This document shows, in pieces, positions 2,896-23,329 of a stretch of DNA of 40,158 nucleotides. Source of the DNA: Patescibacteria group bacterium (GTDB lineage: Bacteria; Patescibacteriota; Minisyncoccia; Moranbacterales; GWC2-37-73). Under the pieces are notes generated by a model. That model did no database searches, was not told where the DNA came from, and was given only the letters and a program-made list of their open reading frames with translations. The stretch's first letter is position 1. The number at the start of each line of letters is the position of its first letter. Location of the stretch: NCBI GenBank assembly GCA_036391995.1, contig DASVYU010000021.1, positions 1 to 40,158 of the forward strand. The letters run 5' to 3'. A program made the translations under genes and the position numbers.

Positions 2896-3786
2896 ATGCC
2901 ACTAATAATCCTGCTGTTCATCATCATTATTGTGTTTATTTTGCCTAACATAAGGATTGTCAAACAGAACACAGTTCTTGTTATTGAGTTTTTGGGAAAA
3001 TACAAGAGAATCATGAGCGCGGGGCTTAATGTGAAAATTCCGCTCTTGGAAAGAGTTGCTAACGAAGTTTCTCTCCGCCAGCAGAATTTTTCAATCGGCG
3101 GCAAATATCCTTCCGCAGACAAAGTTATCGTGGATGTGGCTACCAACCTCATCTATTCTGTTAATCCGACCGAAGAAGGCGTGAAACGCTTTACTTATGT
3201 GTTGCTGGATCCCAAGCAATCCATTGGCGCCATCATTGAAAACTCACTTCGAACATACATTGCCAAGGAAACGCACGAAGGAATCTTGGAGAAAAAAGAA
3301 GAACTGGCCTTGCACATCAAGAGCGATCTGGACAAGCAATTCGCCGAATGGGGTATGCTCATCAGCAGCTTCCAGATCACTAATGTGAATTTCCCATTGG
3401 CCATTACGGACGCCATGTCTGAAGTCGTGGCTTCCCAGCAGCTAAGGAAGGCAGCGGAGAACAAAGGCGAAGCCATCAAAATCCAAGCCATCAAGGAAGC
3501 AGAAGCGGAAAAAGAAAGAAAAAGATTGCAAGGAGAAGGAATTGCGCTGGAACGTGAAGCCATTGCTGAGGGTCTCAAGAAATCCATTGAGACTGTACAG
3601 CAGGTTACCAATCAATCTTCCAGTGAGATTATGGCGATTCTGAGTCTCACTCAATATCTCGATACTTTGAAAGGCGTCGGTTCAAGTGAGAATTCCAAAG
3701 TCATTTTCATGGATACCAACATCCAGAAAACAGGAGATCTCATGCAGCAATTGGTTTCATCTTTGGAGGCTAATAAGCAAAATTAA
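2896..3786 (+). CDS. SPFH/band-7 (stomatin/HflC-like) membrane protein
   Basis: N-terminal TM segment, an SPFH core (VIEFLGKYKRIMSAGLNVKIPLLERV...KVIVDVATNLIYSV...ITNVNFPLAITDAMSEVVASQQLRKAAE) and a coiled-coil tail. Confidence 0.8.
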   Translation: MPLIILLFIIIIVFILPNIRIVKQNTVLVIEFLGKYKRIMSAGLNVKIPLLERVANEVSLRQQNFSIGGKYPSADKVIVDVATNLIYSVNPTEEGVKRFTYVLLDPKQSIGAIIENSLRTYIAKETHEGILEKKEELALHIKSDLDKQFAEWGMLISSFQITNVNFPLAITDAMSEVVASQQLRKAAENKGEAIKIQAIKEAEAEKERKRLQGEGIALEREAIAEGLKKSIETVQQVTNQSSSEIMAILSLTQYLDTLKGVGSSENSKVIFMDTNIQKTGDLMQQLVSSLEANKQN

Positions 3787-6702: not shown

Positions 6703-7262
6703 TATATGAAGATATTTTCAATGTTGTTTCTGTCACGTTCCCACATTTTGGGATTTGTCTGGATGTATTCGCGGATTTTATTTAACGATTCATCATTACG
6801 GATAATGTGGTCGTAGAAACGTGGTTGCCAGGAGAAATATGTATTGTGCATGGTAGCAAATTTTTTAACGCCCACCTTGAATCCTCTAATAACGGACGCC
6901 AGATTTTCTGATTGTGGTCCAAATTTATTACCATTCACGTGTAGAGACGCAAAATTTTGCGTCTCTACATTTAAATGATTGATGCCATTCCAATTAATTT
7001 TTATAATTCCATGCATGTGGTTTGGCATGATGACAAATTCATCCAAATTTATAAATGGAAAATGGTTTGGAATTTTTTTCCAATATTCTTCTGCAATCTT
7101 TCCAATTTCCGATAGAATAATTTTTCCATCAACAATATCACCGAAAAAATGTTCGCGATCACGCGTACAAATTGTGATGAAATACATTCCATCTTGTGAA
7201 TAATTATATCCTGCCAATCTTGAAGATTTTATTGCGTATTTGTTTTTGAATTTATCATGCAT
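6702..7262 (-). mobile_element. REP-associated tyrosine transposase (RAYT), IS200/IS605-type Y1 HUH transposase
   Basis: HUH motif (MPNHMHGII) and a catalytic Tyr region (WQPRFYDHIIRNDESLNKIREYIQTNP). The N-terminus is typical of RAYTs (RLAGYNYSQDGMYFITICTRDR). The likely start is the ATG at 7262; the ORF tool extended it to 7301. Flanked by REP-like palindromes. Confidence 0.75.
6941..6970. repeat. REP-like 30-bp perfect palindrome, copy A, lying in-frame inside the RAYT CDS
   Basis: tgtagagacgcaaaattttgcgtctctaca, preceded by attcacgtg. It encodes NVETQNFASLHV within the transposase. Confidence 0.8.
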
Positions 7263-7304
7263 AAAAAATAATAAAATCAAAATATATACATATTTTAACA
7301 CAAA

Positions 7305-7330
7305 TAAAATCGGGTTTAAACCCGATTTTA
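7305..7330. repeat. 26-bp perfect palindrome between the RAYT start and efp
   Basis: taaaatcgggtttaaacccgatttta; a hairpin-forming element upstream of the RAYT start. Confidence 0.7.
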
Positions 7331-7336
7331 TTGAAA

Positions 7337-7378
7337 TTCACGTGTGACAGGTAGAGACGCAAAATTTTGCGTCTCTAC
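7337..7378. repeat. REP-like palindrome, copy B, with the same attcacgtg leader
   Basis: attcacgtgtgacag-gtagagacgcaaaattttgcgtctctac. It lies 6 bp from the efp stop codon and could double as the efp terminator hairpin. Confidence 0.8.
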
Positions 7379-7383
7379 AATTA

Positions 7384-8853: not shown

Positions 8854-8971
8854 AGAATTTGTGTGATGCTAATCTACGAATGCAACACTAATCTACGAAT
8901 TGCGAATGGATTCAAGTTTGTTTTATTCGCAATTTGCGGATTGGCATTTATTGGCGGATTAGCATATTTAA
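8854..8971. promoter_or_regulatory. Paralogous intergenic element E3, upstream of ssb
   Basis: gatgctaatctacgaatgcaacactaatctacgaattgcgaatgg ... attcgcaatttgcggattggcatttattggcggattagcata. Confidence 0.6.
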
Positions 8972-10019: not shown

Positions 10020-11981
10020 CGACAAGAAAAGGAGAGTAAGATGAAAGAAATGATTCCGCATTTGCCCTCATGGATCCCGTACCTGCTGTTTCTTCTGCCC
10101 GTTGCCTTCTGCATCGTCTTCTACCGTCTCGTGATCCGGATCGGCGGAGTGGTCATCATTCCGGAAGATTCCATAGGGATCGTGAACAAGAAGTTTGTGC
10201 TCTGGGGGACAAACAAGAACTTGCCCGACGGCAAGATCATCGCCCTCAATGGCGAGGCTGGCTGGCAGGCCGACGCGCTTGCTCCCGGTGTGCATTACCG
10301 GAAGTGGCCATGGCAGTACGAGATCAAGATTGAGAAGATGTTCGTCGTGCCGGCTGGTAATATCGCTACTGTGTATGCCAGAGACGGCGTCGCGATCGAG
10401 GGAGGCCGAGTTCTCGGCAGGAAGGTTAACTGCGACACATTCCAGGATGCCAGGAAGTTTCTGGTAAACGGAGGGGAGCGCGGTCAGCAGATCGCCTTCA
10501 TTCCCCAGGGAACATACCGTATCAACACCGCTCTGTTTGAAGTAAAGACGGAAAAGGTCTACGAAGTTCCGAGCGGGAAAGTCGGCGTTATCACGACCAA
10601 GGATGGCAAAGAACTGCCCAAGGACGAGATCGCCGGTGAGAAAGTAGATGGGCACGATTCCTACCAGAACGGCCAGGCTTTTATGGACAATGGCGGCTGG
10701 AAAGGGCGTCAGGCGCAGGTCATTCTTGCCGGACGGTATTTTATCAACCCGTTCTTTGCCGAAGTGGAACTGGTCGACATGACGGAGGTTCAGATCGCGC
10801 ATGTAGGCGTCGTCATCCAGCTCTACGGCAAGGCTGGTACCGATGTTTCCGGTGATGATTTCCAGCATGCCAGCCTGGTTGGACAGGGAGAGAAGGGCGT
10901 CTGGAGGGACCCACTTGACCCTGGTCTCTATGCGATCAACCCCTGTACCCACAAGGTTGTCCAGGTGCCCACGCAAAACATCGTCCTTAACTGGGCCGAT
11001 GATACCTTTGAATCGCACAGGTATGACGAAAAACTGAGCTCGATCACTGTCCGTTCCATGGACGGTTTCAGCTTCACGCTGAACGTCAGCCAGATCATCC
11101 ACATTTCCCGTAACTATGCTTCCTACGTGATTGCGCAGTTCGGCAGCGTGGAGAGTCTGGTCAACAACGTGTTGTCGCCGCTGATCGGAAACTACTTTCG
11201 AAACAGTGCGCAGAACAGCAATGTGATCTCTTTCCTGAGCGAGCGCAACCAGCGCCAGGATCAGGCCAAGGACAAGATCCAGGAAGTTTTGACCAAGCAT
11301 CATGTCACTTCGGTCGACACGCTGATTGGCGACATTAATCCGCCGGAAGAACTGCTCGAACCGCTCAAACAGAAACAGATCGCCGAGCAGCAGAAGCTCA
11401 CCTTCGCTGTCCAGCAGGAAGCTCAGGTGGAACGGCAAAAACTGGAACAATCTAGAGCCATGGCTGAAACCCAGGCGAGCGTCGTTTCTTCGGAGCGCCA
11501 GGTGGCGATCAAAAAGTTCGGTGCTGAAGCTGTCCAGGAAGAAGCCAAGGGTACGGCCGGCGCCAAGACGATCAACGCCAAGGCGGACGCTGAGGTGCTG
11601 AAAGTCGTCGGTATGGCCGAGGCTGAGAAAATCAAGGCTGTCGGTGGTGCCGAAGCGGATGTTATCAAGCAGAAGATTGATTCCATGGAAGCCGGTAACT
11701 ATGCCCTGGTTCTCGTGGCGGAACATCTGGCTAAAGCTGGGGTGCCCTTGGTACCGCAGATCACGGCTGGTGGAAGTGGTGGTGCTGAAGGCGGGCTGGT
11801 CAATGTCCTCCTCGGAACGCTGCTTCACGACAACCTGAAAAAGGCGGCTGTAACACCAGCTGCGGCTCCGCAGGCTGCCCATCTCGAAGCCGTAGCAGCT
11901 GCTGAACCGGCTGCAGCACCCGCTGCCTCGGCGTCCGAAGAGAGGAATGAGCCGGCTGCAGGCGAATCTGTCGAGGAATAA
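10020..11981 (+). CDS. Flotillin-like SPFH protein (YqiK/FloT family), in a high-GC island
   Basis: N-terminal TM (IPYLLFLLPVAFCIVFY), an SPFH core, and a flotillin-type C-terminal AEAE region (VVGMAEAEKIKAVGGAEADVIKQKIDSMEAGNYALVLVAEHLAKAGVPLVPQI). Strong SD (aaaaggagag) before ATG 10020. Local GC about 57%. The ORF tool start at 10002 is 6 codons longer. Confidence 0.75.
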   Translation, partial: RQEKESKMKEMIPHLPSWIPYLLFLLPVAFCIVFYRLVIRIGGVVIIPEDSIGIVNKKFVLWGTNKNLPDGKIIALNGEAGWQADALAPGVHYRKWPWQYEIKIEKMFVVPAGNIATVYARDGVAIEGGRVLGRKVNCDTFQDARKFLVNGGERGQQIAFIPQGTYRINTALFEVKTEKVYEVPSGKVGVITTKDGKELPKDEIAGEKVDGHDSYQNGQAFMDNGGWKGRQAQVILAGRYFINPFFAEVELVDMTEVQIAHVGVVIQLYGKAGTDVSGDDFQHASLVGQGEKGVWRDPLDPGLYAINPCTHKVVQVPTQNIVLNWADDTFESHRYDEKLSSITVRSMDGFSFTLNVSQIIHISRNYASYVIAQFGSVESLVNNVLSPLIGNYFRNSAQNSNVISFLSERNQRQDQAKDKIQEVLTKHHVTSVDTLIGDINPPEELLEPLKQKQIAEQQKLTFAVQQEAQVERQKLEQSRAMAETQASVVSSERQVAIKKFGAEAVQEEAKGTAGAKTINAKADAEVLKVVGMAEAEKIKAVGGAEADVIKQKIDSMEAGNYALVLVAEHLAKAGVPLVPQITAGGSGGAEGGLVNVLLGTLLHDNLKKAAVTPAAAPQAAHLEAVAAAEPAAAPAASASEERNEPAAGESVEE

Positions 11982-16200: not shown

Positions 16201-17268
16201 ATGGAAAACGAAGACAAAAAGGCAGAAGGGAAAGTTGAGGAGAAAAAAGCAGCATCGACGACATCAGCATCTCCGGCTTGGAGCGACAAGAAGAAAACCT
16301 GCAAAGACAAGCTGTGTGCTTTCTGGGACAAGCATAAGAAAACTGTCTTGGCTGTGCTGGTACTTCTGGTTTTGGTGGGTGGCAGCTTCGCATATAAATA
16401 TTTTCCAAAAAGAACTGACATTGGTCCTGCAGCGGCAAAAACAAAATTGACTGACTTCATTAACAAGAATCTTCTGCAGCCAGGCACGACTGCTGACATA
16501 ACTGAAATCGTGAAAGAAAACGGTCTCTATAAGGTGACGGTCAGCGTGGGATCGCAGAAAATCACCGCTTATTTGACTGAAGATGGCAGCAAGTTCTTTC
16601 CTCAAGTGATTGATCTCGATGCTGCTCCCAAGCAAGACAATCAACAGGCAGCGAATGAAAAAAGCGCACCTGATCAAAAACAGGATGTTCCGGAAGTGAA
16701 ACTTTTCGTGATGAGCTACTGCCCATATGGACTTCAAATGGAAAAAGGATTGTTGCCTGCCATTGAATCTCTTGGTAGCAAGATCAAATTCAGTTTGGAA
16801 TTTGTTGATTACACGCTGCATGGACAGAAGGAAGTTGATGAGAACACTAGACAATACTGTATCCAGAAAACTCAGCCGGCTAAATTGGACAGCTACCTTA
16901 AATGCTTCTGGAAAGATGCTTCCGGCGCGTCTGATGCTTGCATGAAATCTGTTGGCATCAATACTGCCCAGGTTTCCAGCTGCGTAAGCGATACCAATAA
17001 GCAGTTTGCTCTAACAGAGAAAGACTACGGTATCAACAAGGATGACAATGATAAATACGGTGTGCAAGGATCTCCTACGCTTGTGGTCAATGGTACGACT
17101 GTTTCCTCTGGGCGTGATAGCGCTAGCGTGCTGAAAGCTATCTGCAGCGGATTTAATAATGCCCCAAAAGAATGTTCAGCTGCGCTTTCTTCTACTGCGC
17201 CAGCCCCAGGTTTTGATAGCCAGGGAGCAGGCAGCGGATCTGCAAGCTCTGCAGCATCTTGCCACTGA
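16201..17268 (+). CDS. Membrane-anchored DsbA-family thioredoxin-fold protein with a degenerate CPYG active site
   Basis: TM anchor (VLAVLVLLVLVGG). A thioredoxin_4/DsbA-like C-domain with FVMSYCPYG, i.e. a single Cys where CxxC is expected, and a cis-Pro motif VQGSPTLVVNG. Confidence 0.6.
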   Translation: MENEDKKAEGKVEEKKAASTTSASPAWSDKKKTCKDKLCAFWDKHKKTVLAVLVLLVLVGGSFAYKYFPKRTDIGPAAAKTKLTDFINKNLLQPGTTADITEIVKENGLYKVTVSVGSQKITAYLTEDGSKFFPQVIDLDAAPKQDNQQAANEKSAPDQKQDVPEVKLFVMSYCPYGLQMEKGLLPAIESLGSKIKFSLEFVDYTLHGQKEVDENTRQYCIQKTQPAKLDSYLKCFWKDASGASDACMKSVGINTAQVSSCVSDTNKQFALTEKDYGINKDDNDKYGVQGSPTLVVNGTTVSSGRDSASVLKAICSGFNNAPKECSAALSSTAPAPGFDSQGAGSGSASSAASCH

Positions 17269-21940: not shown

Positions 21941-23329
21941 ATGAATTTGTCCAGTATAAAGCAAAAAATAGCTCAGTTGCCTCAGAATCCGGGGGTATAT
22001 TTTTTCTGCGACTCGGCAGGGGCAATCCTCTATATAGGCAAGGCGACGAATTTGAGAAGCCGGGTTTCTTCCTATTTCCGTGGTTTTGGTGCGGGGGAGT
22101 TGAGCTCCCAAATGCAAAAAGGGAGCTCAACTCCCTTTGTGGCTGGAAGAAGTGAGTGGATTGGTTTAATGGTTTCGCAAATTGCAAATATTGATTTTCA
22201 AGAAACAGACAGCGTCTTGGAAGCGCTCATTCTGGAAAGCAACCTGATAAAGAAGCATCAGCCCAAATACAACACGCTGGAAAAGGACGACAAGAGCTTT
22301 GCGTATTTTGTGATTACCAAAGAGGATTTTCCACGCATCTTGATTCTTCGAAAAACTGATATTGATTTTGAAAATCTAGAAGCTAAAAGCTATAAGCTAA
22401 AAGCTATCTTCGGCCCATACACAAGCAAATACCAGATGGAAACGGCGCTCAAAATCATGCGCCGGATCTTTCCGTTCCATGCGCTCAAGCAGAAAACAGA
22501 AAAAGGCTGTTTGGATTTCCAGTTGGGCATGTGTCCTGGTCCATATGAAGGCGCGATCTCCAAAGAGGATTACAAAAAGAATATCCGCGGCATCCGGATG
22601 ATCCTGGAAGGCAAGAAAAAAAGATTAGTGACGACATTGGAAAAAGAGATGCAGATCCTTGCCAAAAAAAACGAATTCGAAAAAGCTGCCGAGATTCGCA
22701 ACAAAATATTCGCACTCAATCATATTATGGATATTGCGCTTATGACTAGAGATTTTGATAATTTAGAATTTCCAATTTCGAATTTCGAATCAAATCAGAA
22801 TGACATAATTTCGAAAAATAAATCATTAGAAATTCATTCAAAATTCAAAATTCAAAATTCAAAATTGTTCAGGATTGAGGCATATGATATTTCAAATATT
22901 TCTGGACAAAATGCAGTGGGCTCAATGGCGGTTTTTGAAAATGGAAAACCTGCTAAATCACAATATCGCAAATTCAAGATAAAAACGATTGAAGGCAGCG
23001 ATGATGTGGGCAGCATGCGAGAGGTCTTGTCACGGCGCTTCCACAATGATTGGCCGATGCCTGATCTTATTCTGCTCGATGGTGGGCAAGGGCATTTGAA
23101 TATGGCAACAAAACTGTTATTGGAAGAAATGGGCTTGGCTTTGAATATCGCAGCTGTTGCCAAAGGTCCCACCCGCAAGAAGTTGGATGTGCGAATCGCT
23201 GGATCTGTGCCACCTTCAGTCAAGTATATTCTGGCGGATCAGAATCTTTTGAAGTCCATCATGGATGAAGCGCATCGTTTCGCGATCACATTCCATCGCA
23301 AGCTCCGCCGCAAAAACGCTTTGCAATGA
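21941..23329 (+). CDS. uvrC: Excinuclease ABC subunit C, compact form lacking the C-terminal HhH domain
   Basis: GIY-YIG (GVYFFCDSAGAILYIGKATNLRSRVSSYF ... EALILESNLIKKHQPKYN), a UVR domain (EFEKAAEIRNKIF) and an RNaseH-like endonuclease domain (RIEAYDISN...). Likely start at ATG 21941. Carries three in-frame inserts (22095-22135, 22372-22404, about 22760-22870). Confidence 0.85.
   Translation: MNLSSIKQKIAQLPQNPGVYFFCDSAGAILYIGKATNLRSRVSSYFRGFGAGELSSQMQKGSSTPFVAGRSEWIGLMVSQIANIDFQETDSVLEALILESNLIKKHQPKYNTLEKDDKSFAYFVITKEDFPRILILRKTDIDFENLEAKSYKLKAIFGPYTSKYQMETALKIMRRIFPFHALKQKTEKGCLDFQLGMCPGPYEGAISKEDYKKNIRGIRMILEGKKKRLVTTLEKEMQILAKKNEFEKAAEIRNKIFALNHIMDIALMTRDFDNLEFPISNFESNQNDIISKNKSLEIHSKFKIQNSKLFRIEAYDISNISGQNAVGSMAVFENGKPAKSQYRKFKIKTIEGSDDVGSMREVLSRRFHNDWPMPDLILLDGGQGHLNMATKLLLEEMGLALNIAAVAKGPTRKKLDVRIAGSVPPSVKYILADQNLLKSIMDEAHRFAITFHRKLRRKNALQ
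22095..22135. repeat. Perfect 15-bp-arm palindrome inserted in-frame in the uvrC GIY-YIG region
   Basis: GGGAGTTGAGCTCCC-aaatgcaaaaa-GGGAGCTCAACTCCC. It encodes extra residues (GELSSQMQKGSSTPF) between SYFRG and the conserved MVSQIANIDF. Confidence 0.8.

Follow-up and report, generated by a model that had tools for sequence, protein, structure and literature searches.

An in-frame hairpin in uvrC of a Patescibacteria group bacterium, probably a short selfish or neutral repeat tolerated in a loop of the protein

Rickettsia palindromic elements (RPEs) were reportedly described by Ogata et al. in 2000. They are dispersed, lie between genes as well as in frame in intact genes, typically occupy surface-exposed parts of the protein, and have repair genes such as uvrB among their hosts (PMC3733652). 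Classic RPE-1 copies are longer insertions, RPE-4 and RPE-6 carry a CGTC tag, and Di Nocera, De Gregorio and Rocco linked the RPEs in 2013 to the CGTC class of repetitive extragenic palindromic sequences (REPs) (PMC3733652). The GTAG and CGTC REPs treated in that work are stem-loops of 20–40 bp found in frame in genes, including replication and excision-repair genes of other phyla, and in Xanthomonas recB different REPs were found at about the same site (PMC3733652). Quentin et al. 2018 found that REPs have inserted in frame into subclass 2.4 tnpA-REP genes, where they occupy a variable-length loop that separates the HuH motif from the Tyr motif, and that further copies lie beside the gene (PMC6006769). 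Perfect coding palindromes are also known from mitochondria of Nematomorpha, where both arms are translated, paired substitutions cost amino-acid changes, and template switching was proposed (PMC6649704). Template switching turns imperfect inverted repeats into perfect ones and can produce apparent compensatory double changes in one event (PMC7202029, PMC8794818). The present analysis concerns a hairpin lying in frame in uvrC and a palindrome inside a gene for a REP-associated tyrosine transposase (RAYT), both on contig DASVYU010000021.1. The stretch analysed (the window) is the whole contig of 40,158 bp, from an NCBI third-party-annotated metagenome-assembled genome (MAG) labelled 'Patescibacteria group bacterium'.

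The uvrC hairpin has two arms of 15 nt with 100% complementarity, separated by a spacer of 11 nt (Table 1). An earlier reading of the same DNA, made from its letters without database searches (the sequence-only reading), had described a perfect palindrome at 22095–22135. Arm length, complementarity and frame stood up to analysis, whereas the spacer makes the element an interrupted inverted repeat and not a gapless palindrome. Each arm is in itself nearly self-complementary (GGGAG-N5-CTCCC). The hairpin encodes G52–P65 (GELSSQMQKGSSTP), and the peptide given for the stretch spanning the insert is GAGELSSQMQKGSSTPF. The edges of the inferred 48-nt insertion are uncertain by a few bases, and about 16 residues are added between SYFRG and VAGRSEW. 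The net insertion was about 48 nt (16 residues) in a DNA alignment against the insertion-free ortholog P0009 and about 20 residues against the solved Bacillus caldotenax UvrC domain 1YD6, where the extra residues map between chain positions 52 and 56, that is, between helices 1 and 2 of the GIY-YIG domain. The about 14 residues named in the sequence-only reading count the hairpin alone. An AlphaFold (AF2) model built on a 40-sequence alignment placed the insert between helices 38–45 and 72–80, with a predicted local distance difference test score (pLDDT) of about 53 at residues 51–70 and of 75–94 in the surroundings. Perfect stems of 14 bp or more whose loop does not exceed 15 nt number four in the contig, against a mean of 0.01 over 100 dinucleotide shuffles, and the fold energy of the uvrC hairpin as RNA was −36.5 kcal/mol (z = −5.1).

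Alignment with orthologs confirmed that UvrC proteins normally run on without interruption at this site and that the extra residues are lineage-specific, both as anticipated from the letters. The segment from SYF to DSVLEAL comprises 43 residues in the window and 24–27 in the majority of 120 orthologs. The site is a hot spot, as around 30 of the 120 orthologs carry inserts of 4–55 residues belonging to at least six unrelated kinds. Perfect hairpins at the same site were found in six Moranbacteria-like uvrC genes (L001, L002, L203–L206), loci that had been picked for related-looking inserts so that the hairpin sample is biased by selection. Their stems measure 15–22 bp and all differ in sequence. 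P0025 has GGGAG-TCGAA-CTCCC and the same 11-nt loop as the window, P0022 has ACGGAG-TCGAA-CTCCGA, P0070 has TCGGAG-TCCGA-CTCCGAA and P0112 has CGGAG-CTAAG-CTCCGA. GGGA-CTAAG-TCCCC underlies the perfect palindromes of P0028 (44 bp) and P0052 (34 bp); these have no loop at all and therefore cannot be optimal RNA hairpins.

When the arms of the same-site stems were placed in register by hand, with a dummy loop, all 90 of 90 cells were Watson-Crick pairs without any G-T pair, 11 of 15 pairs were altered on both sides and none on one side alone. None of 500 shuffles matched these values for Watson-Crick pairing and paired change. Between the window and P0025 two pairs are swapped, which is synonymous in the right arm (GSSTP kept) and non-synonymous in the left arm (ELSS to ESNS), so that the symmetry of the DNA was kept and the peptide was not. 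The uvrC hairpins thus fall among coding palindromes with concerted arm evolution, being perfect inverted repeats in a coding sequence with paired arm substitutions between relatives. In a neighbour-joining tree the carriers were dispersed among insert-free sisters.

Hairpins of the same design were also searched for in other genomes of the candidate phyla radiation (CPR). A scan of species-representative genomes with a pattern of two GGGAG-N5-CTCCC units also returned many unrelated GC-rich matches, and the source MAG was absent among the matches listed. Among these matches, which form a biased and partial sample since the pattern required GGGAG/CTCCC feet, at least 27 hairpins had fully complementary cores and lay in low-GC loci, mostly of Patescibacteria and Omnitrophota. 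About half of them were well inside long open reading frames (ORFs), whose Pfam matches included FolD, LigA, RpoB, ThrRS, a Wzy-like protein, UvrD, TsaD, a Mur ligase and a class V aminotransferase, the last with a hairpin at the same site but with different stems in two genomes. Relative to the GGGAG foot, the hairpins are read in every one of the three frames (GSSTP..GVELP, WELGS..GAELP and LGAKLPFGSLAPK). In one Nomurabacteria genome, folD and ligA (L038, L115) share an identical 34-nt hairpin. The rpoB, thrS and wzy-like genes of one Portnoybacteria genome carry three variants, and one Omnitrophota genome contains seven copies or more, most of which lie between genes. The genome of P0028 (L002) carries the hairpin AAAGCTCAACTTT-N10/11-AAAGTTGAGCTTT three times in 21 kb. 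The AAAGCTCAACTTT hairpins and the arms of the window share a 9-nt core (AGTTGAGCT) in opposite arm order; this might hint at a relationship but was suggestive only, and the link was dropped. In many of the listed copies the palindromy extends into AT-rich, site-specific flanks by up to 10 extra bp.

Since copies lie between genes, inside genes and several times per genome, the GGAG-N5-CTCC design appears to behave in other CPR genomes like a dispersed repeat for which genes, too, serve as insertion sites. With the same design in frame in many CPR genes and in several copies per genome, the analogy to the Rickettsia elements, already proposed in the sequence-only reading, proved apt for the hairpins of this lineage. 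A scan of viral contigs for the design gave seven matches, none with complementary cores, and thus no sign of a phage vector. In unselected CPR uvrC loci (L123–L150, 256 kb), three of the four in-ORF perfect hairpins with a stem of at least 12 bp were in uvrC, a gene that accounts for 13.7% of the bases (binomial P = 0.009, small sample). As a side observation, this enrichment echoes the published repair-gene bias of intragenic REPs.

The uvrC hairpin was also compared with known classes of structured elements. Its flanks are gcgg and tttg and its feet GGGAG and CTCCC, so that it lacks the REP foot (GT[AG]G or CGTC). Rfam at the gathering threshold gave nothing in the window. Membership in the intrinsic terminators, which combine a stem-loop with a U-run, was not found, as the hairpin is followed by TTTGTGG. 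A terminator scan did not flag the plus strand at the hairpin and returned only a weak antisense mini-hairpin there, and a terminator or attenuator was dropped as a candidate because the sense strand was unflagged. Two other candidates were rejected as well. A relic of a tRNA T-arm was dropped because the loop of GGGAG-TTCGA-CTCCC has 5 nt and not 7 and because Rfam showed no tRNA, and a pair of DNA-uptake sequences was dropped because the 15-mer occurs at this single site in the 40 kb, which is far too rare.

Taken together, the uvrC hairpin is probably a short repeat of selfish or neutral nature. It would have entered uvrC in frame at a surface loop that is permissive to extra residues, and the protein would tolerate it. 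The element would spread as DNA, by whichever route, and an inserted copy would be translated as a floppy loop, persisting only where the frame is kept and stop codons are absent. Arm-to-arm copying in replication, i.e. intrastrand template switching (quasi-palindrome correction), would keep the arms perfectly complementary, and selection on the RNA fold would not be the cause of their complementarity. The lack of G-T pairs, the zero-loop palindromes and the palindromy that runs into site-specific AT-rich flanks point to upkeep at the level of DNA and not to selection on an RNA helix.

Several points weigh against this interpretation. No further copy of the uvrC hairpin was found in the 40-kb contig, and for the hairpin family neither a linked transposase nor a clear target-site duplication was seen. 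The recurrence at one exact site in seven diverged orthologs could mean that the hairpin is functional or site-targeted, and the same holds for the 11-nt loop that is identical in the window and P0025, as their proteins are 63% identical. Translation of the insert is assumed. The choice of the six loci, the manual register of the arms and the foot requirement of the genome survey also count on this side.

Recurrence and a shared loop would likewise fit a functional cis element that was selected for its structure and conserved at the site since the Moranbacteria ancestor, for example one that governs stability or processing of the mRNA, that acts inside uvrC as a pause or attenuator signal, or that is bound as DNA by a dimeric protein or by one recognising hairpins. 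The site is shared by seven genes, the pairing is perfect with 11 of 15 pairs compensated among orthologs, the fold is strong, and in-ORF hairpins are enriched in uvrC. However, the majority of orthologs, close sisters included, do without the hairpin, other orthologs have unrelated inserts at the same site, and the same design stands at arbitrary positions of unrelated genes. An RNA helix would tolerate G-U pairs, yet no G-U or G-T was present among the 90 cells, and versions without a loop exist. Neither an Rfam family match nor a terminator call on the plus strand was obtained. A functional element is regarded as unlikely.

Each hairpin might also have arisen locally without a mobile element, if template switching in replication repeatedly made or extended inverted duplications at a flexible loop under low constraint. 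Hairpins are known to be created in this way (PMC8794818), and the continuation of the palindromes into AT-rich flanks specific to each site would be in line with such an origin. In addition, the palindrome of L002 is 5 bp longer per side than its counterpart in L206, and the loop of the window resembles the left flank of the P0028 palindrome. What speaks against it is shared sequence, which would not be expected from a purely local origin: unrelated genes and genomes have GGGAG...CTCCC feet and a limited number of cores in common, and the 34-nt copies in two genes of the Nomurabacteria genome are identical. A purely local origin is therefore improbable as well.

A third explanation involves the RAYT gene, which is encoded 15 kb upstream of the hairpin in the contig. 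Its product has the HuH (PNHMHGI), W (WQPRFYDH) and Tyr (REYIQTNP; WQPRF...YIxxNP) motifs, which align to TnpA-REP 4ER8, the best match in the PDB. The NCBIfam match to REP_Tyr_transpos (E = 3.7e-17, 62.6 bits) lies below the 80-bit cut-off, the Pfam match to Y1_Tnp is weak (E = 5e-4) with the domain split by an insert, and homologs carry the name RayT. The internal palindrome separates the HuH motif from the Tyr motif without disturbing the frame and codes for NVETQNFASLH. The repeat unit GTAGAGACGCAAAATTTTGCGTCTCTAC carries GTAG at one end and CTAC at the other, and with copies in and beside the RAYT gene it agrees with REPs in foot and location. The 40-kb contig contains two copies. The external one comes right after efp and precedes the RAYT start codon by about 90 bp. 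The sequence-only reading had correctly seen the perfect 30-bp palindrome in frame, with coordinates off by one (6940–6969), and had overlooked the second copy (7350–7379).

Its proposal that the palindrome colonised this ORF in a lineage-specific manner was not borne out. At least 101 of 120 RAYT homologs, which come from Patescibacteria, Bacteroidota, Zixibacteria, Ignavibacteriota and Nitrospirota, have a peptide of the palindrome type after the HuH motif, most of the others are slightly degenerate, some have two or more copies, and the feature has been published (PMC6006769). In the DNA of four homologs the palindrome was located at ORF nucleotides 293–325. The outer stem GTAGAGAC...GTCTCTAC was the same in four of the five sequences (window and four homologs); in the fifth, the internal copy of L210, decay has left a stem of 8 bp. 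The inner stem and the loop differ between genomes. Different frames are used (RRDAINRVST, CRDEALPRLYT, GRDALQCVST), never the one with a TAG stop. Where an external copy was seen, which was so in four genomes, the internal REP is far more similar to it than to REPs from any of the other genomes. The two copies are identical in the window and in L207, differ by one fully compensated pair in L209 (4293–4320 and 4583–4610), and comprise a decayed internal and a perfect external REP in L210 (2251–2270 and 2543–2570). L208 has no external REP within 4 kb. The external REP sometimes follows the stop codon instead of preceding the start codon (L209, L210).

With the HuH, W and Tyr motifs, a variable insertion between beta3 (HuH) and alphaC that holds an in-frame REP, and double-foot REPs beside the gene, the RAYT gene belongs to TnpA-REP/RAYT subclass 2.4 (RAYT group 4). 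Its internal palindrome is a published hallmark of this subclass and not a local colonisation. Two further observations were made around these REPs. The exact 28-nt GTAGAGACGCAAAATTTTGCGTCTCTAC occurs as a single copy in each of five IMG/VR viral contigs (L219–L223; GC 0.40–0.56), outside any RAYT. Between the external REP and the RAYT start codon of the window (7303–7332) lies a perfect AT-rich palindrome of 30 bp with the halves AATAAAATCGGGTTT and AAACCCGATTTTATT, which may be a bidirectional terminator or an operator.

That this RAYT mobilised the uvrC hairpin as a REP was already disfavoured and is very improbable. The window does contain a RAYT-like gene accompanied by REPs that belong to it, and RAYTs act on hairpin DNA (PMC3733652), but the hairpin has neither a GT[AG]G nor a CGTC foot, shares no sequence with the GTAGAGACGC REP, and occurs in uvrC orthologs whose loci have no RAYT nearby. 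The uvrC hairpin and the RAYT palindrome are unrelated. Finally, a chance inverted repeat or an assembly artefact, for which one could invoke nothing more than the origin of the contig from a metagenome assembly, is refuted by the shuffles with 0.01 such stems per window, by homologous hairpins at the same uvrC site in independent Logan, ENA, JGI and NCBI assemblies, and by the preserved reading frame.

The closest UvrC relatives are labelled Candidatus Moranbacteria, and a metagenome scan for further relatives returned distant genes only (at most 45% identity). The gene order of the contig is an RDD-family gene, RAYT, efp, ssb and rpsF (the last four on the minus strand), uvrB, uvrA, uvrC, an HMA/DsbD protein and a P-type ATPase, and three related loci show a matching order with the exception of RAYT. 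The uvrC product has the Pfam domains GIY-YIG, UVR and UvrC_RNaseH_dom (an RNase-H-like endonuclease) and scored 360.8 bits with TIGR00194, above the equivalog cut-off of 285.45, which assigns it to UvrC. The C-terminal helix-hairpin-helix (HhH) region is absent, as in CPR orthologs of 403–587 aa.

The linker that precedes the endonuclease domain of uvrC contains a second insert in frame, namely an imperfect, AT-rich inverted repeat whose arms measure 52 nt and are 75% complementary. It had a pLDDT of 33–36 in the structure model and is variable among orthologs, several of which have peptides similar to FKIQNSK/ISNFES filling this linker. At a second hot spot in uvrC, L204 (11039–11068) has a perfect 30-bp palindrome in frame, with the halves TCCGCCAAAGGCGGA and TCCGCCTTTGGCGGA, and other orthologs have LPTGQAGG there. 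Short GCGAAT-rich repeats (TNTRINAN... or NLQMNANGANMQ...) were observed just upstream of the uvrC hairpin in L001, L002, L205 and L206, and the window has an inverted repeat of the GCGAAT type in the ssb–rpsF interval (8890–8942).

Table 1. Positions of the features discussed, in the window unless locus L002 is named.
Feature	Position	Strand	Basis or remark
uvrC gene, 462 aa	21941..23329	+	Pfam; NCBIfam TIGR00194; translation
Inferred 48-nt in-frame insertion (GCGG + hairpin + TTT)	22091..22138	+	Ortholog alignments, gap against PDB 1YD6, AF2
Hairpin left arm GGGAGTTGAGCTCCC	22095..22109		Inverted-repeat analysis
Hairpin spacer/loop AAATGCAAAAA, 11 nt	22110..22120		Identical in ortholog P0025
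Hairpin right arm GGGAGCTCAACTCCC	22121..22135		Inverted-repeat analysis
Second in-frame uvrC insert, residues ~271–307, LEFPISNFESNQNDIISKNKSLEIHSKFKIQNSKL	22760..22866	+	Arms, pLDDT, ortholog variability
RAYT/TnpA-REP-like Y1 transposase gene, 186 aa	6702..7262	-	NCBIfam, PDB 4ER8, Pfam, homolog names
Internal 'double-foot' REP (GTAG...CTAC), TGTAGAGACGCAAAATTTTGCGTCTCTACA	6940..6969		Perfect gapless 30-bp palindrome
External REP copy	7350..7379		One mismatch, at the outermost base
L002 hairpin	3533-3569		Upstream of uvrB
L002 hairpin	10938-10973		In frame in uvrC
L002 hairpin	17161-17196		In frame in argS

Should the pattern extend across whole genomes, the very small CPR genomes, in which intergenic space is scarce, would tolerate hairpins in conserved proteins, among them RpoB, LigA, tRNA synthetases and Uvr proteins. 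For annotation this matters because the inserts split Pfam domains and lower domain scores below cut-offs. Five insert-bearing orthologs had a faint or weak precomputed GIY-YIG match, and for P0112 the domain was unlisted. In alignments of marker genes and the phylogenies derived from them, the inserts form hypervariable, non-homologous columns. Perfect arms that change pairwise also offer a natural data set for the maintenance of palindromes at the DNA level in bacteria. A much wider picture, in which Patescibacteria have phylum-wide, self-correcting coding hairpins of the untagged GGAG-N5-CTCC double design that repeatedly enter and turn over at fixed hot spots of essential genes, with a bias to repair genes such as uvrC, and are recognised as DNA by a hairpin-specific system, seems rather unlikely. 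If true, such a system, be it an HuH or other structure-specific enzyme or a replication or repair signal, would explain both the targeting and the strictly Watson-Crick stems.

A literature search found no description of such elements in CPR/Patescibacteria. The sequence-only reading, too, knew of none for this type of genome. REPs inside RAYT genes (PMC6006769) and in-frame REPs in other phyla (PMC3733652) are both published. For the RAYT gene of the window, every feature published for subclass 2.4 was recovered without an essential difference, in a member from Patescibacteria, and a published feature is extended to another phylum. What is added to the picture of Quentin et al. is that the internal REP stays at a constant nucleotide position in different frames and, in four genomes, resembles its own external copy. 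With the Nematomorpha palindromes the uvrC hairpins have in common that inverted repeats in genes are perfect and that paired arm changes are kept despite their amino-acid cost. They differ in that the former occur in animal mitochondria, have arms of up to 284 bp and do not form a dispersed family of short repeats. Quasi-palindrome template switching (PMC7202029, PMC8794818) is a mutational mechanism and not an element family, and its action in uvrC would follow from the pattern of arm changes.

The uvrC hairpin is like the RPEs in being palindromic, in frame and in leaving the ORF open. In other CPR genomes, dispersed copies with this design were seen both in coding and in intergenic DNA, and the contig of the window has one copy. 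In contrast to the RPEs, the uvrC element measures 41–48 nt, is untagged, consists of two nested near-palindromic units and is found in Patescibacteria. The lack of CGTC at either foot is a distinction from the RPE families by the foot alone. Intragenic REPs are defined by a GTAG or CGTC foot, which the uvrC hairpin lacks, and are often G-T paired, whereas the uvrC stems are strictly Watson-Crick; the survey of these REPs had covered no CPR genomes. Because neither tag is present, the uvrC hairpin lies outside the GTAG and CGTC REP classes, yet it behaves like them. The hairpin in uvrC is thus probably a known kind of selfish DNA in a new lineage, and the palindrome in the RAYT gene is a feature that was already known.

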